In this document: positions 27,861-50,900 of the stretch, piece by piece
How the letters are laid out: every line of letters starts with the position of its first letter
Position numbering within the stretch: the stretch's first letter is position 1
Source of the DNA: Saprospiraceae bacterium
GTDB lineage: Bacteria; Bacteroidota; Bacteroidia; Chitinophagales; Saprospiraceae
Length of the DNA stretch: 64,000 bases
Direction of reading: 5' to 3'
Assembly (NCBI GenBank): GCA_013001975.1
Contig: JABDKX010000215.1
Span: 12,038 to 76,037 of the forward strand
Notes under the pieces: model-generated
The model's input: the letters and a program-made list of their open reading frames with translations, nothing else
Databases searched by the model: none
Told to the model about the DNA's origin: nothing
Made by a program: the position numbers and the translations under genes

Positions 27861-30107
27861 TTATTCCTTGATTATTCTAGTAACACTTTCAACGCCATCA
27901 AGTTTACCAATTGAACTTAAGACCAGATTTAATTGATCTTTATTTTTAACAAAAACACTAATTTTTCCTTCAAAATAGCCCTCTTTTCCTTCAATACTGA
28001 AAGATCTGATATTGATACTCAAGTTATTAGATAATTCATTGGTAATTGATTGAATCACCCCTGGTCCTGAGTCTACACCTATAATAGATATTTCTGTAAT
28101 AAAGTTTGTTTGTGATTGTCCCGCCCATTCGGCTTTCAAAACACGATAAGAGTAGTTGGCTAGTAAATGGGTTGCATTTTTACAATTTATTCTGTGGATT
28201 TTCAGACCTTTTCCTGAAGTTAAGTAGCCAAATATATCATCACCTTGTACAGGATTACAGCAAAGGGCGAAGGAGTATTCATATTGATCCAATGATTCTC
28301 CATCAATCAGAATATTAGAACTTCCAACTTTCGGTTTCTTTTTACTTTCTTTTACTGGTAAATCAGCTGGGGCCTGTTTGCCTTGGGTTTCGATATTTCC
28401 TTGAGCTGCAATCGGTTGTTTTTTATCAACTAATTTGTTGTTTTCTACAACATAAGTCTTCAAATCTGGCATCTTAATATCTCCTGTTGCTAAGGCAAAG
28501 TAATAATCTGGTCTGCTGTTGTAACCGTTTGATTTAACTAAAAAGTCAATATTGTCTTCAAAATTAAATTTAGCATTTTTAAGTTTTCTAAATAATGCTT
28601 CCTTCCCAAATTCACCTTTTTGCCTTTTTTCTTCTTTCATGGCAGATCGAATTTTTGACCTGGCCTTTCCTGTGACAGTAAGTTTCAGCCAATGTTCGGA
28701 AGGTTTTTGGTTTTTGTTGGTTGTAACTTGGATTTGATCACCATTGTTAAGCACATGGCCCATAGGCACCAACTTATTGTTGACTTTTATAGCTGTGGCG
28801 TGATATCCAACATCTGAATGGATGTCAAAAGCAAAATCTAATGCAGTTGCGCCTTCTGGTAATATTCTCATATCCCCAGTTGGGGTAAAAACGAAAACTT
28901 CTTTTTGAAAAAGATTAGATTTAAAGTCATTTAAAAATTCAAGTGCATCGGAATGTTGCGTATCCAACAATGCACGAACGTTATCCAACCATTTATCATA
29001 AACATTATTGTTGTTCTTGACACCTTTATATTTCCAGTGTGCTGCAAATCCTCTTTCTGCAATATCATCCATTCTTTCTGAACGAATTTGAACTTCAACA
29101 TATCGCCCTTTTGGCCCAATAACGGTAGTATGAAGAGATTCATAACCATTACTTTTCGGTGTGGTAATCCAATCTTTTAATCGTTCAGGAATTGGTTTGT
29201 ATACATCTGTTATGATCGAGTAGATTTGCCAGCATATACTTTTCTCCTTTTCTACATCAACATCTACAATTATTCTGACAGCGAATAAGTCATATATTTC
29301 TTCAAAAGGAACTTGTTTGACTTGGATTTTATTCCATATTGATGAGATGGCTTTGGGTCTTCCAAGTACACGGAAATCAACATCAAGTTCATTTAATTTT
29401 TCTGTCATTGGATCAATGAACTCTTTGATGTAGGTATTCCTATCAGATTCAGTTTTTTGAAGTTTAGAAGCGATTTCTTTATAGCCATCAGGTTCATTGA
29501 TTTTCATGCAAATATCATTGAACTCTGTTTTTATATTATACAAACCAAGCCTATGGGCGAGTGGAGTATAAATATAGCTGGTTTCGGCGGCAATTCTAAT
29601 TTGCTTTTGCTTTGGCATGGCATCGATGGTTCTCAGATTGTGGAGCCTGTCTGCCATTTTAATCAGAACTACGCGCACGTCGTAAACGAGAGAACTTAAT
29701 ACTTTTTTGAAGTTTTCAGCTTGCTTATTTTCGACGTTATAAGTACCATCTAATTTTGTCAATCCATCAACAATACGTTTGATCTTTGGACCAAACATTT
29801 CATCTATTTCTTCTAATGTTGTATCGGTGTCTTCAACGACATCGTGTAACAAAGCACTTACAATCGAAGTAGCACCAAGGCCAATTTCTTCATAACAGAT
29901 TCTTGCAACTTCAATAGGATGAAAGACATATGGTTCACCTGATTTCCGTCGTTGGTATTTATGTGCATCAACAATAAGATCAAATGCCTTTTTTATATGG
30001 ACTATATCTTCATCATTACATTTGGGTTTGACCTTTTGCAGTAATGATTTGAATTCCTTTTCAATTTCAAGGTATTCACCTTTTGATATTGCTTTTCCTT
30101 TTGGCAT
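27861..30107 (-). CDS. Bifunctional (p)ppGpp synthetase/hydrolase, RelA/SpoT homolog (RSH)
   Basis: 748 aa. HD hydrolase motif LLHDVVEDT, RelA/SpoT synthetase core, then TGS- and ACT-like C-terminal regions. Confidence 0.9.
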
Positions 30108-30371
30108 ATAAACTAGATAGCCAATAAAAGTACTGATTCTACATTTAAGTTGCCATCAAACGGAGGTATAGTTTAAGCTATACATAAGATTTAATCCTTT
30201 TTTTGGAAATGTATCTCATTTATAATTAAAAGAAACTGACTGTAATATTTGAAAAAACGACATATCATTGATATTTGGTGATTTGAGCACCCAAAAAGAG
30301 TCAAAAATTAGCGAAATAACAGTTGCTCAATGAGTAAAAAGATATATCTTTGCGCCTCGTTAATTTGAAAT

Positions 30372-30453
30372 GCGGGTGTGATGAAATTGGTAGACATGCT
30401 AGACTTAGGATCTAGTGCTTCACGGCGTGGGGGTTCGAGTCCCTCCACCCGCA
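30372..30453 (+). tRNA. tRNA-Leu (anticodon UAG)
   Basis: Cloverleaf read by hand. Acceptor GCGGGTG/CACCCGC plus discriminator A, anticodon stem CTAGA/TCTAG with loop CTTAGGA, a 13-nt variable arm, and T-arm GGGGG-TTCGAGT-CCCTC. No encoded CCA. Confidence 0.9.
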
Positions 30454-30496
30454 CTTTTAAAAAACAAGCCTCTCCATAATACTTTATAAATAGCAA

Positions 30497-31852
30497 ATGA
30501 AAATTGAGAAGAAAGACTTAAATGCTTTGACAGCTGAGCTTACGATCGTTATTGAAAAGGATGATTATTTGTCAGATTTCAACCAACAAATCAAAACATA
30601 TCAGCAGAAATCTGCGATGAAGGGATTTCGAAAGGGTAAAACGCCCATTGGATTAGTAAAAAAAATGTACGGTTCAGCAGCATTGCAAGAATCAGTATCA
30701 AAGATTTTAAGCAATAAAATCAATGAAATAATCAGTGGAGAAGAATATCAAATTATTGGTGAGCCTTTATTTTTAGATGAAGATAATCTGCCTACCATCG
30801 ATTATACTGATCCACAAGATTATTCCTACAGATTTGAAATTGGTCTTGAACCGGAATTTGATGTTCAAGGTGCATCTGAAACGGATACTTATTCACAATA
30901 TAAAGTTGATATTTCAGATGAAATGATTGATGAAGAAGTAGCTGAAATGTGTAAGAAGTTTGGAAACCAAATTGAAGTTGACGATACGATTGTTGAAAAT
31001 GATGTTGTCTACGTGAAGGTTTCAGAGCTTGAAGGTAAGAACATTAAGGAAGGTGGCGTAGAATCGGAATTTTCTTTTAATATAGACAAAGTTGAGGAAG
31101 CGTACCAAGAATCTATACTTAAAATGAAAAAAGGAGATTCTTTTGATATGAACATCTTCAAATTTGAAAAGGATCTTCCAGAAGATAATGTTTATAAATA
31201 TCTTTTAAAAATTGATAAGCCTGCTGAAGAAGATGCTCAGATCAGCGAAATGTTTAAAGCTGAGATAACAAAAGTTGTTAGAAATGAGCCGTCAGAGTTT
31301 AATCAAGAGTTATTTGATAAGTATTTTGGAAAAGATGCCGTTAAATCTGAAGACGAAGCTCGAGAAAAGATAAAAAGCTTTATTGATGATTATTTCACAA
31401 CAGAAACTGTAAATTATCTTAATAGAGAGATAATGGAGGCATTAGTTGCAAAAAATCAATTTGATCTTCCTGAAGGGTTTATAAAAAAATGGATCAATAA
31501 GGAAAAGGAGATGCCTGAAGATCAGTTTGAAAACTTCATCAAAGAAATGAAATGGCGTGTCATTAAGAAAAAATTGGTGAAACAGTTTGAAGTAAATGTT
31601 GAAGAACAAGAAATTTTAAACTATTTCGTTAATATGATTCGCAATTATTCGCCTTATATTGACGAAGCAACGTTAAAAAATACTGCTTTTTCGTTGATGA
31701 AAAACCGAGAACAGGTGAATTCTGCAATAGAAGCAGTCAGTAGTGGCAAGTTATTTGATGAAGTAAGAAAGGTGGTAAAGATTGAAAGTGAGGATATTGA
31801 TAAAGATGGGTTTACAGAAAAAGTAAAAGAAATTAATAAAAGAATGCAGTAA
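30497..31852 (+). CDS. tig: Trigger factor
   Basis: 451 aa. The N-terminal ribosome-binding motif region contains GFRKGKTP. It lies directly upstream of clpP-clpX. Confidence 0.9.
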   Translation: MKIEKKDLNALTAELTIVIEKDDYLSDFNQQIKTYQQKSAMKGFRKGKTPIGLVKKMYGSAALQESVSKILSNKINEIISGEEYQIIGEPLFLDEDNLPTIDYTDPQDYSYRFEIGLEPEFDVQGASETDTYSQYKVDISDEMIDEEVAEMCKKFGNQIEVDDTIVENDVVYVKVSELEGKNIKEGGVESEFSFNIDKVEEAYQESILKMKKGDSFDMNIFKFEKDLPEDNVYKYLLKIDKPAEEDAQISEMFKAEITKVVRNEPSEFNQELFDKYFGKDAVKSEDEAREKIKSFIDDYFTTETVNYLNREIMEALVAKNQFDLPEGFIKKWINKEKEMPEDQFENFIKEMKWRVIKKKLVKQFEVNVEEQEILNYFVNMIRNYSPYIDEATLKNTAFSLMKNREQVNSAIEAVSSGKLFDEVRKVVKIESEDIDKDGFTEKVKEINKRMQ

Positions 31853-31892
31853 ACTCTTTAGAGAAAATTGCGTTATTAATAAAAATTTGAAT

Positions 31893-32600
31893 ATGTCATT
31901 AACAAATGAATTTAGAAAGTATGCGACAATGCATCTTAATTTAAATGCAGATGCTGTCGATCATCATATTGATTCTATAAAAATTCCAGGCATTACTGGA
32001 TTTACACCGCAGGTAATAGAAGAGAGACAAATGAACGTTGTTGGAATGGATGTTTTTTCCAGACTTATGATGGATCGCATTATCTTTTTAGGTGTTCCAA
32101 TTAATGACTATGTAGCCAATGTTGTACAGGCACAACTGTTATTTTTAGAGTCTACAGATCCAAAAAGAGATGTTCAAATGTTTATAAACAGTCCTGGTGG
32201 GTCTGTTATTGCAGGTTTAGGTATTTATGATACAATGCAATATGTCTCTCCTGATGTTTCAACAATCTGTACAGGATTAGCAGCATCAATGGGTTCTGTT
32301 TTATTAATGGCAGGGACAAAAGGAAAACGAACTTGTTTGCAACACAGCCGTGTTATGATTCATCAACCATCTGGTGGCATGCAAGGTCAATTTTCAGACA
32401 TGGAAATTACTTACAAATTGATCAAGGACATGAAACGAGAGTTGTATACTATTATGGCAACATGCTCTGGTCAAGAATATGATAAAATTGAGAAAGACAG
32501 TGATCGAGATAACTGGATGACTGCTTTAGAGGCAAAAGAATATGGTATCGTTGATGAAGTATTAACAAGAGAAAATCCTCGTAAAACCGATAAAGCTTAA
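31893..32600 (+). CDS. clpP: ATP-dependent Clp protease proteolytic subunit
   Basis: Catalytic Ser in GLAASMGS and His in MIHQP. The ATG at 31893 is preferred over the TTG at 31887. Confidence 0.95.
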
Positions 32601-32602
32601 CC

Positions 32603-33847
32603 GTGGCAACTAATAAAAATAAAGGGCAAAAGTGTTCATTTTGTGGTAGAGATAAAAAAGATACGCTTTTATTAATTGCTGGTGTAGAAGGCCATATTTG
32701 TGAAGCTTGTGTAGAGCAAGCTTTCGAAATTGTCGATGAAGAGTTAGGAGCAAAATCCAAAAATAAAAGTAACTACAGTTTCAAATTACCAACTGGAACA
32801 ACGCCTGCCAAAATCAAATCTTTTTTAGATCAATATATTATTGGTCAAAATGAATCAAAAAAATATTTATCGGTCAGTGTATATAATCACTACAAGAGGT
32901 TGAATCAAAAATCAACCGATGATATAGAAATTGAAAAGTCCAATATTTTATTTGTTGGCCAAACAGGTACTGGTAAAACATTATTAGCAAAAACAATTGC
33001 TAAATATCTGAATGTACCTTTTTCCATTGTTGATGCTACTGTTTTTACTGAAGCTGGTTATGTGGGTGAAGATGTCGAAAGTATGTTGAGTCGATTATTA
33101 CAAGCGGCAGACTATAATGTTGAAGCTGCTCAAAAAGGCATCGTCTATATTGATGAAATCGATAAAATAGCGCGTAAACGAGATAACCCGTCAATTACCA
33201 GGGATGTTTCAGGTGAAGGCGTTCAACAAGCCTTATTAAAGATGCTAGAGGGAACGGAAGTTAATGTACCTCCTTATGGCGGAAGAAAGCATCCAGAGCA
33301 AAAAATGATACAAGTAAACACCAGTAATATATTGTTTATTATGGGTGGTGCATTTGATGGTATCAGTAAGATAATTGCTAAAAGACTCAACACGCAAGTT
33401 ATTGGCTTTAATAATAATAAGGAAGACTTAACTAACGAGGAGAACTTACTTAAGTACTTGTCTCATCAAGACCTTAAAGCATATGGCTTAATTCCAGAAT
33501 TGATTGGAAGAATGCCAGTGTTAACTTATTTAAATCCTTTAGATCAAGAAACGTTGGTTCGAATCTTAACAGAACCTAAAAACGCTTTAGTGAAACAATA
33601 TGAAAAATTGTTTGCATTAGAGGGAATCAAATTAACCATTGAAAATGATGCTGTTAATTATATTGCTAAAATGGCAATGGAGTATAAATTAGGTGCTAGA
33701 GGATTACGTTCGATACTAGAAGCAATTTTAACGGATGCTATGTTTGAGTTACCATCCCAAGCTGACATAAAAGAATTTTCAGTTGATGAGCTTTATGCAT
33801 CAGAACAATTGAAACGTTCTTCTATTTCAAAATTAAAAGTAGCTTAA
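32603..33847 (+). CDS. clpX: ATP-dependent Clp protease ATP-binding subunit ClpX
   Basis: N-terminal zinc finger CSFCGR...CEAC, Walker A GQTGTGKT, Walker [13 protein letters not shown] start 2 nt after clpP. Confidence 0.95.
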
Positions 33848-33855
33848 TTTAAATA

Positions 33856-35124
33856 TTAAGCGTATAAATCAAATTGCTTCATCATCTTATTGACTTCTTT
33901 TTTAACACTAGAAAGATAGGCTTCATCTTCTTTTCTTGTTAGTATTTCGTCAATCCAATCTACGATTTGGATACAATGATATTCTTTTAATCCACGCGTT
34001 GTTATAGCTGCTGTTCCCAATCTGATTCCAGATGTTACAAATGGACTTTGATCATCAAAGGGAACCATATTTTTATTAACCGTAATATCCGCTAATTCAA
34101 GTGTTTTTTCAGCAACTTTTCCAGTAATGTCTTTAGATCGTAAGTCAATAAGTAATAGGTGGTTATCAGTTCCTCCAGATGAAATTTGGTAACCTTTATC
34201 AAGGAATGCTTTTGACATTGCTTGAGCATTTTTAATGACTTGTTTTCCATAAGTTTTAAATGAATCATTTTGCGCTTCTTTAAAAGCGATTGCTTTTGCT
34301 GCTATGACATGTTCCAGTGGTCCACCTTGCATACCAGGAAAAACGCCACTATTTAAAATGGAAGACATCTTTATCAAGTTACCTTTTTTGGTTGTTCTAC
34401 CCCAAGGATTTTCAAAGTCTTTACCCAGCATGATTATACCGCCTCTTGGTCCTCTCAAAGTTTTGTGTGTAGTAGAGGTGATAATATGACAGTGGGGCAG
34501 TGGGTCATCTAATAAGTTAGCTGCAATTAATCCAGCGGGATGTGCGATATCAGCAAGTAAAATAGCATTTACAGAATCAGCAATTTCTCGAAATCTTTTA
34601 TAATCCCAATCTCTCGGATAAGCTGAAGCACCACAAATGATTAATTTAGGTTTTTGAAGGTGGGCAATCTTTTCCACTTTATCCATATCAATTCTACCTG
34701 TATCAGCTTCAACGCCATAAAATACAGGATTATAAACTTTGCCAGAATAATTGACCGGTGATCCGTGTGACAAATGACCTCCATGAGCTAAATCGAAACC
34801 TAAAACAGTATCTCCAGGTTGTAGTAAAGCTAAAAATACAGCAGCATTGGCTTGTGCGCCTGAGTGAGGTTGGACATTGGCATATTCAGCTCCAAATAAA
34901 GCTTTTAATCTATCAATGGCCATATTTTCAATTTCATCCACAAACTGACATCCACCATAATACCGTTTGCCAGGATAGCCTTCAGCGTATTTATTTGTTA
35001 AGCAAGTTCCCATAGCAGCCATTACATCAGGGCTAGCAAAGTTTTCTGACGCTATCAATTCAATACCTTCTGTTTGTCGCTTTAATTCTTTTTCGATTAA
35101 TGCGTTGATTTTTTTATCTACCAT
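33856..35124 (-). CDS. glyA: Serine hydroxymethyltransferase
   Basis: PLP-lysine motif [12 protein letters not shown]. The start is set at [17 protein letters not shown]. The 22-codon ORF-track extension covers the upstream terminator and is rejected. Confidence 0.95.
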
Positions 35125-35160
35125 ATTGGTTTCTAATTCACTAAAATTAAATGATTGCCA

Positions 35161-35198
35161 AAAATAAAAAAAGCCTTGCGTAATAAACACAAGGCTTT
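35161..35198 (-). terminator. Rho-independent terminator of the giant repeat-protein gene
   Basis: Perfect 9-bp stem AAAGCCTTG / CAAGGCTTT with an 11-nt loop. On the minus strand it is followed by TTTTTTTATTTT, about 24 nt after the stop at 35222. Confidence 0.8.
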
Positions 35199-35221
35199 CT
35201 ATTTATTTTAATACATGTGTA

Positions 35222-38200
35222 TTATTGAATTCCTAATGCAGTTAATGTTTCAAAATCTAGGTTACCTACAGGTAAGCCATTGTCTTTTTGAAACTTAACC
35301 AATGCTGCTTTTGAAGATCTTCCAAATACACCATCAGCACCAGCACTTCCAATATCGTAATTTCTTTCGATAAGTGCGTTTTGTACTTTCATGTAGAAGT
35401 TCTTGTCTAAATCAGCTGCACAAACAACTTGTTTCCACTCAGTAAATCCACCTTTTTTAACCAACTGTCTTTTAGAAACAGTTTTGTATTGAGCTGGTAC
35501 TTCAGTTTCTGAAATTGTTTGAGGAGAAGTACTTGTGTAAGTTCTTGTCTCCATAACTGTAGAATTTGCAGTAGATGTTGTTGTGGCATCAGCAACTAAA
35601 GTCTGATACGTTCTGTTCACAAACTGATCTTCACCTCTTACTTCTTCGTAAGTTGCATCTGTAGCTAATTTCTGGTAACTAACATCCTCATAAGTTGCAG
35701 GAATTGGCGTCGCTTCAGTTGTTGCATCAGCTACCAAGTTTTGGTATGTTCTAGTTGTAAACTGATCATCTCCTCTTACTTCTTCTGCCGTTGCATCATT
35801 AGCAAGTCTTTGGAAAGATCTTGTCGTGTAAACTTTTCCATCACCTGTTCCTTCACCGTAAGAAACCAATTCTGTTCTTCTGTTTTGTCTTCTACCTTCT
35901 GCAGTTGAATTATCTGCAATTGGAGAAGATTCGCCTCTTCCATCGTAAGACATTTGCGAAACAGGAACACCAGCATCTACCAATGCATCATAAACTGATT
36001 TAGCTCTATTTCTAGATAAAGTTCTGTTAGATGCTTCTGATCCTTGAGAATCAGTATGTCCAAGAATTTGAACTTGACCTTTACCGTCCATAAGATCTTT
36101 GGCAATTCTTTGAATTTCAGCATTTGATGAACTTGAAAGAACAGAAGATCCCGAATTAAATTTAACATCAATTGTTACTGCAGAAGATCCAGCTCCTGTG
36201 ATCTCCTCGAAAGAAGCATCAGAAACTAATTTTTGCATTGTGATTGTTGTCATTCTGTCGTCACCTTGAATAGTTTCAGCAGACGCATCGTTTGCTAATA
36301 CTTCATAAGTGTAAGTACCGTAGCTAGGCTCTCCTGTGATAGTTTCAGCAGAAGCATCTGTACCCAACCTTTGAACTGTTACGTTCGTATATTGCGCTTG
36401 ACCATAAATTGGTTCAGCATAAGCATCAGAAACTAATTTTTGAGAATTTACATTTGTAAATTTATCATCAGCTCTAGATTCGCTTGCAGTAGCATCGGCA
36501 ACTAAACTTTGGTAAGTTCTAGAAGTAAATTGATCATCACCTCTAACTTCTTCAGCAGTAGCAGCCGTAGCCAACCTCTTATAAGTTCTTGGAGCATACT
36601 TAGCAGGTACTTCAACAACTTCTGTTGTTGCTGCACTTACTAATTTTTGGTAAGTTCTTGTTTCGTAAACTGCTGGTACAGTAGAAGAAGTCGTTGTAGC
36701 TGGTGTCACTAATTTTCTTGTAGAAACAGTTTCATAAACTGCAGGCACTTCAACAGCTTCAGTAGTAGCCGGTGTCACAAGTTTTCTAATTGTTCTTGTA
36801 GTATACACAGGATCAACAGTTACAGTTTCAGTTGTAGCTGGAGTAACTAATTTTTGATACGTTCTTGTTTTATATTGAGCAGGCACTTCAACAGCTTCAG
36901 TTGTAGCTGGTGTCACTAATTTCCTCATAGAAATAGTAGCATATTCAGCAGGTACTTCAACAGCTTCAGTAGTAGCCGGTGTAACAAGTTTTCTAATTGT
37001 TCTAGTAGTATAAACAGGATCGACAGTTACAGACTCCGTAGTAGCCGGTGTAACAAGTTTTCTCCAAGTTCTTGTTTCGTATTTAGCAGGCACTTCAACA
37101 GCTTCAGTTGTTGCCGGTGTCACTAATTTCCTATAAGAAACAGTTGTATAATCAGCAGGCACTTCGGTAGCCTCTGTTGTAGCGTCAGTTACTAACCTTT
37201 GGTATGTTCTAGTAGTATATTTAGCCTCAACTTTATTTGTACTTACAGAAGCAGGACTAGCTAATTTTTGGTAAGAAATTGTTTCATATACTGCAGGCAC
37301 TTCAACAACTTCGGTTGTCGCATCAGCAACTAATCTTTGGTAAGATCTTGTTGTATATTTAGCAGGCACTTCAATTGTTTGAATACAATCATCACCGCTG
37401 TTTGTCCATCCTTCGTCACATCCTTCTCTTACTTTTCTTTCTACATTTCTAAAAGAAGCTGGTGTTTCAACAAGACACCAAACCAAACAATCATCTGGGT
37501 TAGCAGAAAGACAAGCTGGATCAGCTTTTTTCTTTACCCATCTTGATGAAGCAGGAGAAGTTTCAATTCTAACTGTTTCAGTACTGTATCTAGCTGGTTT
37601 CTTATTAATTCTACTTGTTGCTTCAGAAACTAACACATCCTCAGTTACAGTTTCATATTTAGCAGGAATAACTTTAATTACATTGTAAGCTGGCTTTTTA
37701 AGTTTTTCTTCCGTAACAGTTTCGTAAGTTGCAGATACAGGACTTAAAGTAGAATATCCTTCTTTTACTAAAACTTCTTCAGTAACAGTTTCAAATTGTG
37801 CAGGTATAACTCTTAAAGTTGTATAAGCCGACTTTTTAAGTTTTTCCTCAGTCACAGTTTCGTAAGTAGCAGGTACAGCTCTTAAAGTTGTATGAGCATC
37901 TTTTACTAACACATCTTCAGTAACAGTTTCATAAACAGCAGGTACAGCTTTTAAAGTTGTGTAACCATCTTTAGAAAGTACTTCTTCCGTTACTGTTTCG
38001 TAAGTTGCTGGCACTTTTCTTAAAGTTGTGTAAGCTGGCTTTTTAAGTTTTTCTTCAGTTACTGTTTCATAAACAGCAGGAACTGCTCTTAAGGTAGTAT
38101 AAGCATCTTTTACTAATATATCCTCAGTAACAGTTTCGTATACAGGTGGTATATTTTTTACAACAGTATATCCATCTTTAGAAAGTACTTCTTCCGTAAC

Positions 38201-39709
38201 AGTTTCGTAAGTTGCAGGCACAGCTTTTAGTATTGTATAAGCCGGATTTTTAAGTTTTTCTTCAGTTACTGTTTCATAAACAGCTGGTACTTCAGTTAAA
38301 ACTTCGTAAGCTTCTTTAACTAATTTTTCTTCGGTAACAGTTTCAAATTTAGCAGGAACAACTCTGATCGTTGTATATGCATCTTTAACCAAAACTTCCT
38401 CAGTTGCATCTTCAAAAGTTGCGCCTGAAATTCTTACAGAAGAAGAACCATCAGCTTTAAGAATTTCTTCAGTTTGAGTTTCAAATTGAGCAGGCGTAAT
38501 GCTGATTGTAGACTCACCATCGCTAGCAAGCATTGATGCAGTACTTGTTTCAAATTTAGCAGAAACAATTCTATTGTCAACAACACAGTTAGGATCTTTA
38601 GGCGCAGCATCTTTACCAGTATAAGTAACCATTTCGGTTCTTCTGTTCTGTCTTCTTCCGTCAGCAGTTGCGTTATCAGCAATTGGAGAAGATTCTCCTC
38701 TACCATCATAGCTCATTCTACTGGCATCGATTCCTCTTTCAATTAGTGCATTATAAACAGCTTTCGCTCTGTTGCTTGATAAAGTTTGGTTGGCAGCTTC
38801 TCCACCTTGAGAATCTGTATGTCCAATTAAGCCAATTGTCATGGCTGAATCATCATTCATCATTGCAGCGATTCTATCAATCTCTCTATTTGAACTGTTT
38901 TTAAGTACTGATGAACCAGATTCAAAATTGATGTTTCTTAAAATTGAAGAACTACCAGCGCCACAAGTGTTGGCAATTACAGATTCTGTATCTGTATTAA
39001 AAGTTGCTGGTGCGATTCTTACACTTGAAGCGCCATCAGCCTTTAGCACTTCTTCAGTTGCTGTTTCAAATGTTGCAGCAGAAATTCTAACATCAGAATC
39101 TCCATCACTTGCTAAAACAGTAGAAGATACAGTTTCAAATGTTGCAGGTGTAATTCTAACATCAGACGATCCGTCATTTACAAGTACTTGTTCTGTAGCA
39201 GTTTCGAATTGTGCTGGTGTTATTCTAACTGATGATTGTCCATCAGATTTAAGAATTTCTTCAGATACATTTTCAAATTGTGCTGGAATAACTCTTAGTG
39301 AATTAGCAGCTTCTTTGGCTAGCTTTTGTTCAGTAACAGTTTCGAAAGAAGCAGGTGTAATTGTAACTGTAGATGAGCCCTCTGATTTTAAAACAGATTC
39401 TGTAGCTGTTTCAAATTGAGCGGCAACAGCAGTTAATGTGTTACTAGCTTCACGCGCTAAAACTTCTTGAGATATCGTTTCTGTGTTTCCAGAGTTGATA
39501 TTTACTCGTGTAGTAGCTTCTTTTACCAAAACGTCTTCCGTTATGGTTTCATATTGGTCCTCGATCAAACATCTGGCCCAACATCCATTGCCTGTAGGCA
39601 TATCTTGAGAAGGCACAGCACTCTGAACTTCATTAGATTGGATTTGCGCATTTAATGAAAATGCACCAAATAGTAAGAAACAAGAAAAAATTAGACAAAC
39701 TTTTTTCAT
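35222..39709 (-). CDS. Giant exported envelope protein: about 47 x 23-residue repeats, two OmpA-like peptidoglycan-binding domains and a C-terminal PG_binding_1-like domain
   Basis: Signal peptide MKKVCLIFSCFLLFGAFSLNAQ. Two near-duplicate OmpA C-terminal-like domains (F-x-SGSSVL...GHTDSQG...N-x-x-LS-x-NRA...DGRGESSPIADN...GRRQNRRTE). C-terminus DGVFGRSSKAALVKFQKDNGLPVGNLDFETLTALG. No T9SS sorting domain. Confidence 0.9.
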   Translation of the reverse strand: MKKVCLIFSCFLLFGAFSLNAQIQSNEVQSAVPSQDMPTGNGCWARCLIEDQYETITEDVLVKEATTRVNINSGNTETISQEVLAREASNTLTAVAAQFETATESVLKSEGSSTVTITPASFETVTEQKLAKEAANSLRVIPAQFENVSEEILKSDGQSSVRITPAQFETATEQVLVNDGSSDVRITPATFETVSSTVLASDGDSDVRISAATFETATEEVLKADGASSVRIAPATFNTDTESVIANTCGAGSSSILRNINFESGSSVLKNSSNREIDRIAAMMNDDSAMTIGLIGHTDSQGGEAANQTLSSNRAKAVYNALIERGIDASRMSYDGRGESSPIADNATADGRRQNRRTEMVTYTGKDAAPKDPNCVVDNRIVSAKFETSTASMLASDGESTISITPAQFETQTEEILKADGSSSVRISGATFEDATEEVLVKDAYTTIRVVPAKFETVTEEKLVKEAYEVLTEVPAVYETVTEEKLKNPAYTILKAVPATYETVTEEVLSKDGYTVVKNIPPVYETVTEDILVKDAYTTLRAVPAVYETVTEEKLKKPAYTTLRKVPATYETVTEEVLSKDGYTTLKAVPAVYETVTEDVLVKDAHTTLRAVPATYETVTEEKLKKSAYTTLRVIPAQFETVTEEVLVKEGYSTLSPVSATYETVTEEKLKKPAYNVIKVIPAKYETVTEDVLVSEATSRINKKPARYSTETVRIETSPASSRWVKKKADPACLSANPDDCLVWCLVETPASFRNVERKVREGCDEGWTNSGDDCIQTIEVPAKYTTRSYQRLVADATTEVVEVPAVYETISYQKLASPASVSTNKVEAKYTTRTYQRLVTDATTEATEVPADYTTVSYRKLVTPATTEAVEVPAKYETRTWRKLVTPATTESVTVDPVYTTRTIRKLVTPATTEAVEVPAEYATISMRKLVTPATTEAVEVPAQYKTRTYQKLVTPATTETVTVDPVYTTRTIRKLVTPATTEAVEVPAVYETVSTRKLVTPATTTSSTVPAVYETRTYQKLVSAATTEVVEVPAKYAPRTYKRLATAATAEEVRGDDQFTSRTYQSLVADATASESRADDKFTNVNSQKLVSDAYAEPIYGQAQYTNVTVQRLGTDASAETITGEPSYGTYTYEVLANDASAETIQGDDRMTTITMQKLVSDASFEEITGAGSSAVTIDVKFNSGSSVLSSSSNAEIQRIAKDLMDGKGQVQILGHTDSQGSEASNRTLSRNRAKSVYDALVDAGVPVSQMSYDGRGESSPIADNSTAEGRRQNRRTELVSYGEGTGDGKVYTTRSFQRLANDATAEEVRGDDQFTTRTYQNLVADATTEATPIPATYEDVSYQKLATDATYEEVRGEDQFVNRTYQTLVADATTTSTANSTVMETRTYTSTSPQTISETEVPAQYKTVSKRQLVKKGGFTEWKQVVCAADLDKNFYMKVQNALIERNYDIGSAGADGVFGRSSKAALVKFQKDNGLPVGNLDFETLTALGIQ
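35231..35404 (-). other. PG_binding_1-like domain at the C-terminus of the giant protein (residues 1436-1493 or so)
   Basis: VQNALIERNYDIGSAGADGVFGRSSKAALVKFQKDNGLPVGNLDFETLTALG matches the three-helix putative peptidoglycan-binding pattern (DG-x-x-G-x-x-T/S-x-x-A-L-x-x-F-Q). Confidence 0.75.
35465..35845 (-). repeat. 23-aa coding tandem repeat, block 4 (about 6 units, after the second OmpA-like domain)
   Basis: Anchors at 1294, 1317, 1340, 1363, (1386) and 1408. The last unit is shifted by one residue. Confidence 0.75.
35861..36178 (-). other. OmpA-like peptidoglycan-binding domain 2 of the giant protein (residues 1178-1283 or so)
   Basis: DVKFNSGSSVL...ILGHTDSQGSEASNRTLSRNRAKSV...YDGRGESSPIADNSTAEGRRQNRRTELV. 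Confidence 0.85.
36194..37378 (-). repeat. 23-aa coding tandem repeat, block 3 (17 units, flavour VEVPAxYxTRTYxKLVTPATTEA, degenerating toward the C-terminal side)
   Basis: Anchor Y/F at positions 785, 808, ... 1038, 1061, 1084, 1107, 1130, (M1153). It includes two identical 27-aa stretches 69 aa apart. Confidence 0.9.
37574..38578 (-). repeat. 23-aa coding tandem repeat, block 2 (15 units, flavour VPAxYETVTEE-K/V-L-x-K-x-x-Y-T-x-L-x-x)
   Basis: Anchor F/Y at positions 386, 409, 432, 455, 478, ... 685, 708, with exact 23-residue spacing. Units are organised in a 3-unit (69-aa) super-repeat. Confidence 0.9.
38624..38944 (-). other. OmpA-like peptidoglycan-binding domain 1 of the giant protein (residues 256-362 or so)
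   Basis: NINFESGSSVL...LIGHTDSQGGEAANQTLSSNRAKAV...YDGRGESSPIADNATADGRRQNRRTEMV. Confidence 0.85.
38975..39568 (-). repeat. 23-aa (69-nt) coding tandem repeat, block 1 (about 9 units, flavour PAxFET-x-TE-x-VL-x-x-DG-x-S-x-VRI)
   Basis: The aromatic anchor residue falls at protein positions 53, (76), 99, 122, 145, 168, 191, 214 and 237, an exact spacing of 23. Confidence 0.85.
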
Positions 39710-39777
39710 GGTTGATTAAAAATTTTTATTAGTAATGTCATTAAAAGGTCATTTTTTTCAAAATGGCCACAAAAGTA

Positions 39778-41076: not shown

Positions 41077-42630
41077 ATGACGAAAATCAAACTATTGTGG
41101 GCAGATGATGAAATTGATTTACTAAAGCCACAACTGTTCTTCTTGGAAAAGAAAGGATATGAAGTGCTTCAAGTAACGAATGGGTATGATGCTTTGGAAG
41201 TATTAGATGAAGAGAATGATATTGAATGTGTATTCTTGGATGAATCGATGCCGGGGATCACAGGATTAGAAACACTTGAAAAAATCAGAGAAAAAAATAA
41301 AACTGTGCCCATTGTTATGATAACAAAAAATGAGGCAGAAGATTTAATGGAGCAAGCCATTGGTTCTCAAATAAATGATTACTTGATCAAGCCTGTTAAT
41401 CCAAATCAGATATTATTGTCATTAAAAAGGATTATTGATAATAAAAGACTTGTCAGTGAGAAAACAGCGTCTGCGTATCAACAGGAATTTCGCAATATCG
41501 CTATGGATATCAATAGTGGTCTTAATTTGGAAGAATGGGATAACCTGAATAAACGAATTATAGATTGGGAGTTGCGTCTTGACAGTTCTGACAATGAGTC
41601 TATGAAAGGCATCTTGGAAATGCAAAAAAAAGAGGCCAATAAATCATTCAGTAAATTTATCGACTCAAATTATGAAGACTGGATAAGGGATCAAGATGGT
41701 CCGACGATGTCTCATAATCTTTTTCGAAACTATTTGTTTCCTAACTTGAGTGAGGATAAGCCGAACATCGTTATTTTATTCGATAATCTAAGATATGACC
41801 AATGGAAAATCATTGAACCTATTGTAAATGAACAGTTTAGGGTTTTGGATGAAAAGACATTTTATTCAATTCTGCCAACAGCAACACAATATTCAAGGAA
41901 CGCCATATTTGCTGGTATGCTCCCTAAGGATATTCAAAAGCATTTTCCGGATAAGTGGTTAAATGATAACGAAAAAGGAGGGAAGAATCAGCATGAAGGA
42001 TTTTTCTTAGAGAAGCAAATTCAGCGCATTGTCAAAAAGAATATAAAATCAGAATATATCAAAGTTAGGAATATCAATGATGCCAGATTGTTGCAAGATA
42101 ATATTCATAATTACCTTAAAAATGATTTGACTGTTATCGTTTATAATTTTATTGATATGTTATCTCATGCCAGGACTGAAATGGAAGTTTTAAAAGAGCT
42201 TGCGGCAGATGAAAGAGGATACCGTTCATTGACAAAATCATGGTTTATTAATTCACCAATATGGAGTGCACTACAAGTGATAGCGGAAAAAGAAATTTCT
42301 TTATTTATCACAACAGACCATGGAACGATAAGAGTCAATCAACCTTCAAAAGTTATCGCTGATAGAGAGACTTCTACAAATCTTAGATACAAAGTTGGAA
42401 AAAATTTGAGATTTAAAAATGGGGATGTCTATGAAGCAAAAGATCCTAGTGCAATCGGCTTGCCAATGCCAAACTTAAGTTCCAGATTTATTTTTACCAA
42501 GGAAGATTACTTTTTTCTCTATCCCAATAATTACACATATTATAACAACATGTATTCTGATACTTTTCAGCATGGTGGCATCTCTTTAGAAGAGATAATT
42601 TGCCCATTTGTGAAATTGGAAAGTAAGTAA
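41077..42630 (+). CDS. porX: PorX-type response regulator: CheY-like receiver fused to a PglZ (alkaline-phosphatase superfamily) domain
   Basis: Receiver motifs WADDE, phospho-acceptor FLDESMPG and LIKP. The C-terminal PglZ-like region has ILFDNLRYDQW and ITTDHGT. At 517 aa it matches PorX in size. Confidence 0.8.
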   Translation: MTKIKLLWADDEIDLLKPQLFFLEKKGYEVLQVTNGYDALEVLDEENDIECVFLDESMPGITGLETLEKIREKNKTVPIVMITKNEAEDLMEQAIGSQINDYLIKPVNPNQILLSLKRIIDNKRLVSEKTASAYQQEFRNIAMDINSGLNLEEWDNLNKRIIDWELRLDSSDNESMKGILEMQKKEANKSFSKFIDSNYEDWIRDQDGPTMSHNLFRNYLFPNLSEDKPNIVILFDNLRYDQWKIIEPIVNEQFRVLDEKTFYSILPTATQYSRNAIFAGMLPKDIQKHFPDKWLNDNEKGGKNQHEGFFLEKQIQRIVKKNIKSEYIKVRNINDARLLQDNIHNYLKNDLTVIVYNFIDMLSHARTEMEVLKELAADERGYRSLTKSWFINSPIWSALQVIAEKEISLFITTDHGTIRVNQPSKVIADRETSTNLRYKVGKNLRFKNGDVYEAKDPSAIGLPMPNLSSRFIFTKEDYFFLYPNNYTYYNNMYSDTFQHGGISLEEIICPFVKLESK

Positions 42631-44812: not shown

Positions 44813-45946
44813 TTGACCAAGCTACTAAAGACGATTATATTTCTATACTTAGCATTATTTCTCAATAATGCGACTGGTCAATGCTTGCTTGACAGTGTCA
44901 TTATCAATTCAATTTTAGTTGATCCATCAGGTTTTTATTTTAGTTACGATACTAATGATGATGGCTTTTTTAATTCTAATGATGAATACATTGAAATATG
45001 TAATACTGGATCTGATTCTATAGACGTTTCGGGCTGGCAAATAGGTGATGATGATCCACCACCTTTTCCTGACTTTCAAATTCCTGATAGTACATTGTTA
45101 GCTGCAGGAGAATGTCTTCTTGTAGTGGCTAATTATTGTCCTGGTGTTCCCATAGATTCATGCTCAACTCCTACAGGTGTCCTCAATATGGGCCTTACAT
45201 TTACTGGATTTCTTGGAAATTCTGGTGATGTAGTTTCTATCGTTGATACATTAGGAAATAGTTGTTCTGTTGTCTATGGGGGAGTTCTCTGCAGTGATGT
45301 TGATACTTTAGACATTCCTGATTTTGATATTATGGCATGCAATGATTGGGGTGGCGATATAGATGGTTGTGCCTTACTTGCAGTAGGAGATAGTTGCACA
45401 TTTACGCCTACCGTATTACCAATAACTTTTATTGATTTTACCACAGATATTGGCATTGAAAAACAGGTGATTTGCAATTGGAGCGTCTTTGAGAATGCTT
45501 CACTTCATAAGTACCTAGTTCAATGGCGAGGTGAAAATTATGATCAATATAAAACCATAGCAGAAATAGATAATATCGGCGCGGTTCCTGCCGTTCATGA
45601 ATATTCATTTACACACGCAAATGTACCATCTGGATTAAATTACTATAGAATTTTGATAATCGATTTGTCTGGGAATGAGATTACCTCAAATGTCAATGTC
45701 ACCTTGATTGATTTTGAGAATGATATTATAATCTATCCAACTGTATTTTCAGAGGCGTTAATTATTGATGGTTCTAAAGAATTTTACCATGTGAAGATTT
45801 TTGATGCGCTTGGCAAAATGGTATTTAACCAAAAGCAAACATTTAAAAAACAGCCCATTGATTTAATAGGACTTCAACCCGGTTATTACTTTATAAATGT
45901 GAGCTCAGATGAATTAAATCTTACACAAAAGATTATTAAACAGTAA
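44813..45946 (+). CDS. Secreted lamin-tail-domain (LTD) protein with a pre-CTD Ig/Fn3-like module and a T9SS type A sorting domain
   Basis: LTD-like segment INSILVDPSG...DEYIEICNTGSDSIDVSGWQIGDD...GDVVSIVD. LPITFIDF...YYRILIIDLSGNE module. C-terminal IIYPTVF...LQPGYYFINV tail. TTG start. Confidence 0.7.
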   Translation: MTKLLKTIIFLYLALFLNNATGQCLLDSVIINSILVDPSGFYFSYDTNDDGFFNSNDEYIEICNTGSDSIDVSGWQIGDDDPPPFPDFQIPDSTLLAAGECLLVVANYCPGVPIDSCSTPTGVLNMGLTFTGFLGNSGDVVSIVDTLGNSCSVVYGGVLCSDVDTLDIPDFDIMACNDWGGDIDGCALLAVGDSCTFTPTVLPITFIDFTTDIGIEKQVICNWSVFENASLHKYLVQWRGENYDQYKTIAEIDNIGAVPAVHEYSFTHANVPSGLNYYRILIIDLSGNEITSNVNVTLIDFENDIIIYPTVFSEALIIDGSKEFYHVKIFDALGKMVFNQKQTFKKQPIDLIGLQPGYYFINVSSDELNLTQKIIKQ

Positions 45947-47910: not shown

Positions 47911-50900
47911 TTATCTGATAACAGTTACCTCACCACTATATACTTGTTCTGCGCCATCAATGAACCTTATTGTTGCTGTGTAAACATAAACCCCAGGAAC
48001 AACTTTATTATTTGGTCCATTACCGCGTCGGCCATCCCAACCATCATCTATATTTAATGGTGCTCTTAAGTTTTGTGCATCATGCATAAGATTTCCCCAT
48101 CTGTCATAAATTCTAAATGAAATCATTTCTTCAACTCCAACGCCAGTTAATGGAATAAATTTATCATTAGGAGGTAATGCAAAAGGATTGAAAATATTGG
48201 CAATGTAAACGTTTCGTTCTGTCTTAATGTCGACCAAGATTTCATCTTTTGAAGTACATCCATTGGCATCAGTCACAATAACTTCATAGGTTGTGAATGA
48301 TGTAGGTGTAATTGAAATTGATTGACAGGAATCTCCAACACAAGAAAATTCAGAACCAGAAAACCACATAAAACTAAATTCAGGTGTTCCTCCTGTAGTG
48401 ACTGCTGTTAATTCGGCAGCATCTTGTCCTAACTCAAATGTAATATCATTTCCTAGAGAGACACTAAAAGGATCTGGATTTTGAACATCTACAGTCAATT
48501 CAATGGAACAACCTGCAGAATCAAATACCAAGAGGGTGTAGATTCCAGGGCCTACCATGACGCATGAATCGATTGGTAATCTTTCTCCAAAATTGATACT
48601 GTAAGTGAAATTCATATTTGTTCCTCCCAAAGCGGATTCTATACCAATACACGTTTTGTCCGTTTGACATTTTGGATTTTCAAAAGGCAGAGCAGTAGCC
48701 ATCAATTCGGAAGTCCCTACAAGCTCATATGAAGTTTCTGCAGTACAGCCGCAATCATCAACAACAGTAACGGTGTAAATACCAGGACCTAAATCACTAG
48801 CTAAACTTGTTGTTGAAACATTATCAGCCCATTGATATTCATAGTTGCCACACCCACCACTTGCAATGACTGGAATAGCGGCAATATTTTGATTTGTGCA
48901 ATCTAATTGAATAACGCTCATAGAATCAACTCGGACTATTAATGTATCAGGTTCTGCAATAGATATTAACCCAGTTCCTTCACAATTATTATCATCAAAA
49001 ACTGTAACATTATATTCTCCAGCGCACAAATCCATGCGTGTCTGATCAGTATTGCCATCTTCCCACAAGTAGGTGTAATCACCAACAACATTTCCGCCAG
49101 TACCAAAAAGTGCAATTGATCCGTTACATTCTCCCTTACAATCAGTATTCGTAATAACGACATTGCTAAAATCTAACATGACTGCAGATGGTTGATCAAT
49201 CGTGAAAAACAATGTGTCGGTTGCACACGTACCGTTAGAAGCAATAACAAAATTTTCTCCAGGCAGTAACTGAGTGGCGTCATCTGTTAGGCCGCTACCA
49301 TCATCAGCTGGATTAGACCAAAGGAAGTTATAGTTGCCTACATTCAATGGATCATTGGTAATTTCTGCTGTTGCTTGTCCACTTGGCGTTTCAAAACATA
49401 AAGCTCCAATAACATTTGAAACTGCAACTTGTAATGTATCGGTTATTGTTAAGTCGATAAAAGTATCTTTTTGACATCCATTTGCATCTGTCAATGTTAC
49501 ATTATAAAACCCTGGGGCAAGTTGTGTCAATGTACAGTTTTGAGCATCTAAAGTTGGGTCTCCCCATTCACATGTGCCATTGACTGAATCAAAGCCAGGG
49601 AAACTGATAGCACCATCACTAATGCCAGTTGCACAAGAAGGGAAAACAACATTAATATCAATGATTAAATCAGTACTCGTGTTGATTAACGTAACAGTTG
49701 TATCCGTTGTACAGTTTCTTGCATCTGTAAAGCTGATTGTGTAATCGCCAGCTATTAAGTCTTCTGCTTTTATACCAGATAGACTTGAATCAGACCATGC
49801 GATATCAATTGGCAAATTGGCACCATCTAAGTTATTGACACAAATGACACCTAAGTCTCCAGAGCAAGATGGATTATTAATATCTAAATCGAATGTAATA
49901 TTTTGAGTTGGTGCAAAAATCTGAACAAAGGTATCTTTGCTGCAATTGTTATTATCTATAATGGCAAAATTATATATGCCTGCAGATAAATTGCTAGGGT
50001 TGCATGTAAAAACACTGTTGTCTTCCCATATGCATTGATAGGGCCCAGTTCCACCAGTAATATTATCTATATTCACTGATCCATCACTTCCACCTGGACA
50101 AGTCACATTTGTTTGTATAATATCAAATGTGAAGTCTGTGGGTTCAACTGTTACGGTTGCAAATGTATCGAGAGAACAACCATTCAAATCAACCACAATC
50201 AAATTGTAGGTTCCGGCCATTAAGTTCATTGGATTACAAGAAGTTATGCTGCCGTCTTCCCATTGACATTCGTAAGGTGGTTGACCTCCTTGAATATTTA
50301 TAACGTTTATGGATCCATTTTCACTTTCTGCACATTCAGTATCTTGAATATCAAACTCAAGTGTTAAACCCAATTCTACAGGTATATTTACAGTATCTGT
50401 TGCTTCACAGTTGTTATCTGTAGTGGTTACAATTATTATGTAATCACCTGGGCTGTTAAACGTTAAAGATTGTGTATTTGCCAATGGAGATCCATTTATA
50501 TCTTGCCATTCAAAAGTTGGATTGTCAGATGATGAACTTGCAAGGATATCTATATTAAGAACACCAGGCGTCGTGCCATCGCAAGAAATGTTGGTTTCAA
50601 TAAAGGCATCGATCTCTAGAACATTATCTGAATCAATAGTTATAGATGTATCAATGACACATCCTAGATCATCCGTAATAGTGACATTATAAGTTCCTGT
50701 TCCAATATCAGACAATTGGTTTGTCGTGTTCGATGGATCCGCTTCCCAATTAAATTGATATGGCATCATTCCACCTGTAACATTAGCTGTAATCTCTCCG
50801 TCCGGTCCACTACATGATGCTGTATTTGTTATAAATGAAACAAGCAATTCTTCAGGGGGCTCATTTATAGTTATAAAAGTATCTTTCATACAGCCGGTTG

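Follow-up and report, generated by a model that had tools for sequence, protein, structure and literature searches.

A Saprospiraceae Protein with Two Matched Arms of 23-Residue Repeats, Predicted to Form a Peptidoglycan-Anchored Periplasmic Rod

We analyzed a 64,000-nt stretch of DNA from a Saprospiraceae bacterium (GenBank assembly GCA_013001975.1, contig JABDKX010000215.1, positions 12,038–76,037), hereafter the window, which carries an open reading frame (ORF) of 1,495 amino acids (aa) plus a stop codon at 35222–39709. The ORF had been reported without its strand in a preliminary description made from the letters alone; it reads from ATG to stop on the minus strand, to which the coordinates of its parts and of its transcription signals given below also belong. 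The encoded protein combines known peptidoglycan-binding modules with an undescribed family of 23-residue repeats and with an undescribed architectural rule, namely that an N-terminal arm of acidic (E) units and a C-terminal arm of basic (R) units, joined by an invariant Cys-rich linker, keep matched unit numbers and matched insert positions through evolution. Our favored interpretation, in which we place slightly less than even confidence, is that of a periplasmic structural protein in the form of a folded-back, peptidoglycan-anchored, and disulfide-linked two-armed rod.

Two Arms of 24 Units Joined by a Cys-Rich Linker

When the protein sequence was laid out in 23-residue lines, the anchors of the four blocks fell in register as previously described, at positions 53–237 (9 units), 386–708 (15 units), 785–1153 (17 units), and 1294–1386 (5 units), and all 42 within-block spacings were exactly 23. 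The anchor is aromatic in most units, the exceptions being T76, M1153, and M1386. The earlier figure of about 47 strictly 23-residue repeats was corrected to 48 units, of which 46 are strictly phased and two are slightly offset: a cryptic unit in the linker (anchor F754), which is followed by an 8-residue Cys loop, and the last unit (anchor 1408), which is shifted by −1. Self-identity of the protein reached 0.353 at lag 23 and 0.346 at lag 46 and was at most 0.097 at all other lags. At the DNA level, the 69-bp units were only 68–69% alike, and higher-order periods of 138 and 207 bp, corresponding to two and three units, were observed in blocks 2 and 3 with 75–85% matches; for this reason the array is best read as old and diverged and not as an assembly artefact. 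The 207-bp three-unit repeat lies beside the linker in both arms (36693–37219 and 37744–38387), which suggests that each arm grew through multi-unit duplications. The Bacteroidota O-glycosylation motif D-[ST]-[AILVMT] occurs only once in the protein, which is too seldom to be informative.

Two classes of unit were distinguished. The E units follow the general form PAx[FY]ETVTEEvLxK[DE][AG]..., which in block 2 reads PAxYETVTEEvLxK[DE][AG]YTTLRxV, and the R units follow PAxYTTRTYQKLVT[PD]ATTExVEV; positions Y/F4, T6, T8, and L12 are common to both classes, and the other positions differ. The E arm extends from an N-cap (C43xxxC47) to a C-cap (W724...C733), and the R arm is likewise bounded by caps, the N-cap being C741xxxC745 and the C-cap W1425...C1430, located just before the C-terminal PG_binding_1 domain. 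Along the chain, the first N-cap and the distal E arm with the 9 acidic units of block 1 occupy residues 43–249 (38963–39583), and the proximal E arm with the 15 acidic units of block 2 occupies residues 376–720 (37550–38584). The linker, or "tip", follows at residues 721–781 (37367–37549), then the proximal R arm with the 17 basic units of block 3 at residues 782–1165 (36215–37366), and finally the distal R arm of block 4 at residues 1291–1430 (35420–35839), which contains five in-register units, the unit shifted by −1, and the C-cap GGFTEW1425KQVVC1430. The two arms measure 690 and 691 aa, contain 24 E and 24 R units, and carry one OmpA insertion each.

Besides the cryptic R unit, the linker contains the E-arm C-cap and the R-arm N-cap, and it joins the two unit classes through the pattern W...CLSxxPxDCxxWC...GC...DC, with W724, C733, C741, C745, C764, and C775 as its marked residues. 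It is the most conserved segment of the family, in which W, C, S, P, C, W, E, C, G, and C are invariant; the short Cys motifs singled out in the preliminary description are real and stand among the family's most conserved columns. Five Cys residues are found at the tip and two plus one at the predicted base, and C249 and C375 flank the first OmpA domain.

Unit Numbers and Insert Positions Are Matched between the Arms

When genomes were scanned with an alignment of the linker region, more than 546 relatives were obtained, of which the best 80 loci were kept. All of these belonged to Saprospiraceae, Lewinellaceae, or unclassified Bacteroidota, including Portibacter marinus and P. lacus. Because the neighbors of the window gene recur at these loci (an HD/HD_assoc_2 protein at 72, a PglZ response regulator (PorX) at 67, glyA at 60, and clpX/clpP at 33), we regard the relatives as orthologs and the gene as real and conserved. 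The orthologs range from 461 aa (locus L059, with 7 units in each arm) to 1,712 aa and carry zero, one, or two OmpA domains; eleven species have proteins of 1,491–1,497 aa with a block layout like that of the window protein (9/15/16–17/5–6). A hidden Markov model (HMM) of the 23-residue unit found 13 to 54 units per ortholog in 79 orthologs, and among adjacent units 2,066 spacings were exactly 23 and 35 were between 20 and 26 but not 23. Thus, the 23-residue register, whose loss in orthologs had been named beforehand as grounds for discarding the finding, is conserved.

The numbers of E and R units were strongly correlated in the 74 complete orthologs (r = 0.98), with a range from 7 to 28 per arm and about 15 distinct count states, among them 7/7, 8/8, 10/10, 12/12, 20/20, 22/22, 24/24, and 28/28. 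In orthologs without an OmpA domain, the R arm exceeds the E arm by exactly 10 residues in every length class. The same order was observed more widely, with E units preceding R units in 199 of 242 diverse family members; there the counts correlated at r = 0.58 and fell within two of each other in 157 of the 199, although the HMM is less sensitive in these proteins. The distances of the inserts from the linker also match between the arms (r = 0.95 in 43 orthologs), with a mean difference of 1.6 units when counted from the linker, as for antiparallel arms, compared with 5.6 units for parallel pairing. In addition, with terminal units trimmed, cross-arm mutual information under antiparallel numbering peaked at shifts of −1 and 0 (0.146 and 0.141) against about 0.11 at shifts of ±7, whereas parallel numbering gave no clear peak. 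Since unit numbers and insert positions stay matched through evolution, the result would be hard to explain unless the arms lay side by side and antiparallel. What the match establishes is co-registration and not physical contact, and the lines of evidence are not phylogenetically independent.

Predicted Structure of the Unit

AlphaFold2 (AF2) was run with 53 homologs on residues 583–935, a segment in which the linker is flanked by six E units on one side and six R units on the other. The model was all-beta, with strands of 12 and 7 residues alternating through two-residue turns at a period of 23 as assigned by DSSP, and the predicted local distance difference test (pLDDT) was 80–94 over about 170 residues around the linker. 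Each unit is mapped as a long strand (3–14), a turn (15–16; [DEP][AG]), a short strand (17–23), and the turn P1-A2. Because two-residue turns link consecutive strands, the predicted units are antiparallel hairpins and not the coils of a solenoid, and the beta-solenoid suggested earlier was not borne out, nor was any solenoid present among the Foldseek matches. When we mapped the consensus sequences on this register, R21 of the E units stood opposite E10 and E5 of the next unit, and E19 of the R units stood opposite R7 of the next unit; such complementarity of charges across strands serves as an independent, sequence-level consistency check of the hairpin register.

The arms are very polar overall (Thr, Val, Glu, Ala, and Lys), with 14–20% Thr, an abundance of Val, Ala, and Glu, and few large hydrophobic residues, a composition that suggests a ribbon whose hydrophobic core is small or absent. 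No structural homolog in the PDB was found by Foldseek with the AF2 model: the best match had an E value of 0.011, template modeling (TM) scores were at most 0.12, and only long hairpin stems, from pore-forming toxins and phage tails, were matched.

Peptidoglycan-Binding Modules and Export Signal

The OmpA family (PF00691) matched the protein twice in the Pfam search (144.8 bits against a cut-off of 27.2; E = 1e-42; best stretch, residues 262–356), in agreement with the near-duplicate OmpA-like domains proposed earlier, which are 63% identical to each other. The first (residues 250–375; 38585–38962) interrupts the E arm at a distance of 15 units from the linker. The second (residues 1166–1290; 35840–36214), placed at about 1168–1283 by NCBIfam, interrupts the R arm 18 units away from the linker and was modeled by AF2 with pLDDT of 80–97. 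Both keep the family motifs (GHTDSQG...LSSNRAKAV and GHTDSQG...LSRNRAKSV), which align with those of Escherichia coli YiaD, their best PDB match (2k1s, E = 5e-21); in solved homologs, the Asp of HTD and the Arg of LSxxRA contact the diaminopimelate stem. The YiaD, YfiB, and PA1041 lipoprotein equivalogs of NCBIfam were rejected as assignments, their cut-offs being passed only by summing the two OmpA domains and a conserved lipobox being lacking; the window protein covers positions 102–204 of 206 of the YiaD profile and 44–159 of 163 of the YfiB profile. The C-terminal PG_binding_1 domain (PF01471; 35225–35419), also foreseen in the preliminary description, scored 39.6 bits against a cut-off of 23 over residues 1441–1492 and folded in AF2 as a three-helix bundle with pLDDT of 82–97.

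A signal peptide was predicted at residues 1–21 (MKKVCLIFSCFLLFGAFSLNA followed by Q; 39647–39709) from the sequence and its conservation in orthologs. The putative signal-peptidase-I site lies between A21 and Q22, with Gln at +1, and this Ala-Gln site is conserved across the 79 orthologs. The orthologs do not keep the signal-peptide Cys at position 10, and no conserved lipobox was found in the set. The Pfam scan of the window protein gave no match to a C-terminal type IX secretion system (T9SS) domain, either Por_Secre_tail or CHU_C, the C-terminus being occupied by PG_binding_1. On all three points, a signal peptide without lipobox or T9SS domain, the earlier reading of the ORF stood.

The Repeat Family beyond Saprospiraceae

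To delimit the family, a 46-position profile of two consecutive units was searched against 1.84 billion representative proteins, and it matched 1,450 proteins or clusters at E ≤ 1e-3 and 712 at E ≤ 1e-10. Among 110 sampled members, PG_binding_1 was present in 79, OmpA in 6, and a T9SS tail in one, and a few had PG_binding_2 or PG_binding_3, VWA, or CAP domains. The family also occurs in Betaproteobacteria: the member from Variovorax sp. PCZ-1 (P0005) has 10 E and 10 R units, as counted by eye, and an extra N-terminal Cys-containing domain. Its gene (locus L081, 6001–8511) directly follows a cluster of the ybgC-tolQ-tolR-tolA type together with an HHH_3 (ComEA-like) gene; as this was observed at one locus, the proximity may be a coincidence. 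Two giant proteins, P0014 (2,034 aa) and P0017 (2,114 aa), are alpha-2-macroglobulin-like, with CarboxypepD_reg and Plug domains and an embedded cassette of R and E units bearing a WVKRKANRNCLSADPNDCQVWC tip, so the cassette would act as a portable module outside peptidoglycan-binding proteins as well.

That the repeat is not a recognized domain, as had been supposed, was supported by the searches described here. OmpA and PG_binding_1 were the only credible Pfam or NCBIfam matches, PDB sequence searches with the repeat region and with the repeat profile gave no match, and cluster look-ups of ten family members returned almost no names. Four Pfam candidates (DUF1659, Mrr_cat, HTH_57, and ApbA_C) were rejected as sums of weak repeat matches in which no single stretch passes. 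DUF1659 (28.0 against a gathering cut-off of 24.1) and Mrr_cat (23.5 against 21) exceed their cut-offs only by adding repeats, and automated annotation of family members could carry these two labels falsely.

A Fold-Back Rod and Its Alternatives

The periplasmic, peptidoglycan-associated fiber put forward in the preliminary description is the natural reading of a protein with a Sec/signal-peptidase-I signal, no conserved lipobox, no T9SS domain in the Pfam scan, invariant Cys residues, and PG_binding_1 in most sampled relatives. In the architecture that we favor, the protein would be exported by Sec, cleaved between A21 and Q22, and held non-covalently on peptidoglycan as a soluble periplasmic protein. 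Successive 23-residue hairpins would join into a long antiparallel beta-ribbon, and the chain would fold back at the disulfide-rich linker that connects the acidic and the basic arm, such that E unit i would lie beside R unit i in a hairpin-shaped rod of 24 paired units. The linker would then form the free tip, and the N-cap, the C-cap, and PG_binding_1 would come together at the base, where the three Cys would mirror the C-cap plus N-cap composition of the tip. The first OmpA domain, 15 units from the tip, would sit beside the second, 18 units from it, at about one third of the way up, with C249 and C375 where one would look for them in a loop-inserted domain. Three sites would fasten the lowest third of the rod to the sacculus, from which the tip with its conserved Trp, Lys, and Cys residues (RWVKKKAD...CLVWCLVE) would project to a distance set by the unit number; as roughly estimated from strand lengths and geometry alone, the rise would be about 1–2 nm per unit. 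The likely role of such a rod would be that of an envelope strut, spacer, or tether, or of a scaffold presenting its tip to a partner.

Several observations weigh against this architecture. The 74 orthologs come from related species and supply about 15 count states rather than 74 independent points, and one of them (L040) is an outlier with 24 E and 16 R units. Crude proxies for matched "flavor zones" along the arms (an aromatic residue at E position 17 and Pro at R position 15), expressed as fractions, did not correlate (r = −0.44), and we make no claim of zoning past what listing the arms next to each other shows. An acid-base zipper between the arms was rejected, given that both arms are net acidic (−36 for blocks 1 and 2, −11 for blocks 3 and 4) and the opposite charges are satisfied within each hairpin. 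The predicted TM score (pTM) of the AF2 model was 0.30, at which arm-arm contact is neither shown nor excluded, and in a second AF2 model (residues 1040–1495) the degenerate R units, folded alone, had pLDDT below 50. Mutual information with average product correction on 46-residue double units, used as a check of the within-arm hairpin contacts, was dominated by the E/R class signal and end effects and recovered only the 14–17 pair, and that weakly. Finally, literature searches, in which peptide strings of the repeat were included, found no published description of the repeat family.

An arrangement that we hold to be unlikely, but that accounts for the same statistics, is an antiparallel homodimer or polymer of extended chains, in which the E arm of one molecule would pair with the R arm of another to form a double-length rod, or else a meshwork or filament within the periplasm that would have many points of attachment to peptidoglycan. 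Such an assembly could reinforce the sacculus of the long, flexible, gliding filaments of Saprospiraceae. It predicts equal arms, inserts matched from the linker, and the antiparallel peak of mutual information just as the fold-back rod does, and the tip (5) and the base (2+1) each have an odd number of Cys residues, which would allow disulfides between molecules. However, the covalent linker, the most conserved segment of all, is most simply read as a turn.

A single linear fiber or beta-solenoid of about 47 units, which would grip peptidoglycan at three spaced points and set the width of the periplasm, was the form originally suggested; we consider it quite improbable. Three peptidoglycan-binding modules are indeed spread along the sequence, and the 23-residue period is strict. 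Nevertheless, the model of the repeats shows antiparallel hairpins instead of parallel coils, and a linear fiber leaves unexplained why the arms should be equal about a Cys-rich linker, with the OmpA domains at matched positions. A fixed ruler of the periplasm is, moreover, difficult to square with arms whose length varies four-fold (7 to 28 units) from one syntenic ortholog to another and would fit poorly unless the rod lay obliquely or along the wall.

The ribbon might instead be a ligand surface, with a flat Tyr/Thr ladder (Y4, T6, T8) running along glycan strands, so that the protein would be a multivalent peptidoglycan "carpet" or a chaperone and not a projecting rod. The restriction of shared residues to Y/F4, T6, T8, and L12 in E and R units and the co-occurrence of the repeat with PG_binding_1, 2, or 3 and OmpA across the family would fit such a surface. 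Yet the argument is purely inferential, neither Pfam nor Foldseek against the PDB returned a carbohydrate-binding family for the window protein, and equal numbers of two unit types would go unexplained; we find this very improbable. We find it barely credible that the protein crosses the outer membrane to serve as an adhesin of the cell surface or as an S-layer-like protein: a long Thr-rich tandem repeat in a T9SS-bearing organism, with T9SS cargo genes and porX nearby, would suit such a role, but the chain ends in PG_binding_1 and not in Por_Secre_tail or CHU_C, a T9SS tail occurs in only one of the 110 family members, and three peptidoglycan-binding modules would make no sense outside the outer membrane.

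Comparison with Known Envelope Proteins

With its two bona fide OmpA-like domains and their Asp/Arg motifs, the window protein resembles the OmpA-family anchors, such as Pal, YiaD, YfiB, the C-terminal domain of MotB, and PorE of the T9SS. Those anchors are lipoproteins, beta-barrels, or inner-membrane proteins with one C-terminal OmpA domain, whereas here the OmpA domains are inserted within the repeat rod, there is no membrane anchor, and PG_binding_1 ends the chain. If the fold-back rod is correct, the protein would resemble Braun's lipoprotein (Lpp), in that an elongated periplasmic protein fixed to peptidoglycan could define a distance through its length. The 58 residues of Lpp form a trimeric coiled coil, which has a lipid anchor in the outer membrane and a covalent bond between the C-terminal Lys and peptidoglycan; in contrast, the window protein is predicted to be all-beta, has no conserved lipobox, ends in ...ALGIQ with Gln, and is expected to bind non-covalently. 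Lpp is not known from Bacteroidota.

The G5-E rods of SasG and Aap and the single-layer sheets of the OspA type share with the arms very polar tandem beta repeats and a copy number that varies between strains or species, and a coreless elongated sheet of that kind is what is predicted for the arms. In SasG/Aap, copy number sets length, and the rod projects from its wall-anchored end. The unit there is about 128 residues on the Gram-positive surface, compared with 23 residues in a predicted Gram-negative periplasm, and the two-armed architecture with matched numbers has no counterpart in SasG/Aap. No likeness to these proteins was seen by sequence or Foldseek, and Pfam gave no G5 match at E ≤ 1 in the window protein. 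FimV and HubP likewise join a module that binds peptidoglycan to a long, repetitive, acidic region that varies in length, but they are inner-membrane proteins with LysM domains and cytoplasmic or disordered repeats, unlike the predicted periplasmic, ordered hairpins described here.

How the outer membrane, cell wall, and inner membrane are spaced and connected outside Proteobacteria is largely unexplained, and the repeat family, which is near-universal and syntenic in Saprospiraceae and comprises at least 1,450 protein clusters across phyla, has neither a name nor a structure. The matched-arm rule offers a concrete structural hypothesis together with a natural length series of 7 to 28 units per arm. 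As a doubtful generalization, we propose an "adjustable strut" class of disulfide-capped fold-back rods of coreless hairpins, whose length would be tuned by matched gain and loss of units in both arms, with the base on peptidoglycan and the tip engaging a membrane or partner; these could replace Lpp-type spacing or tethering in Saprospiraceae and other bacteria without Lpp, or shape long gliding filaments. The 23-residue hairpin may also interest protein designers as the modular, strictly phased unit of a coreless beta-ribbon.

Transcription Signals and Neighboring Genes

A strong intrinsic-terminator-like hairpin, with a 14-bp stem followed by a T run (35168–35200; found by a consensus scan only), starts 22 nt past the stop codon of the repeat gene and before glyA. 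Upstream, TACTTTTG (39770–39777) is a weak, single-motif match to TAnnTTTG, the consensus of the Bacteroidota −7 promoter element, and lies about 60 nt 5' of the ATG, just past the stop codon of the HD-protein gene. With a terminator-like hairpin behind it and this motif ahead of it, the repeat gene may form its own transcription unit that ends before glyA. The glyA ORF (serine hydroxymethyltransferase; 33856–35190 on the minus strand) has a listed GTG start that overlaps the terminator hairpin, and its Pfam match starts at residue 23; thus, the true start is probably further downstream.

The gene order conserved in Saprospiraceae is PorX, divergent from the HD-protein gene, which is followed by the repeat gene and glyA; the PorX-HD-repeat part of it was observed at 67–72 of the 80 loci, and it was also found on an unrelated 2.2-Mb contig (L082) with a 416-aa family member. 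In the window, the PorX ortholog is a T9SS response regulator with receiver and PglZ domains that scored 773 bits with NF052313 (cut-off, 300); its gene (41077–42630 on the plus strand) runs divergently from that of the HD protein. Further along, a 377-aa protein encoded at 44813–45946 on the plus strand combines a Lamin Tail Domain with a T9SS sorting domain of the Por_Secre_tail type, and a 1,515-aa ORF at 47911–52458 on the minus strand, with SprB repeats and a CHU_C type IX secretion signal, is probably a gliding or adhesion surface protein. On the other side, relA/spoT, trigger factor, clpP, and clpX form a housekeeping cluster (27861–33847) that adjoins the repeat locus.

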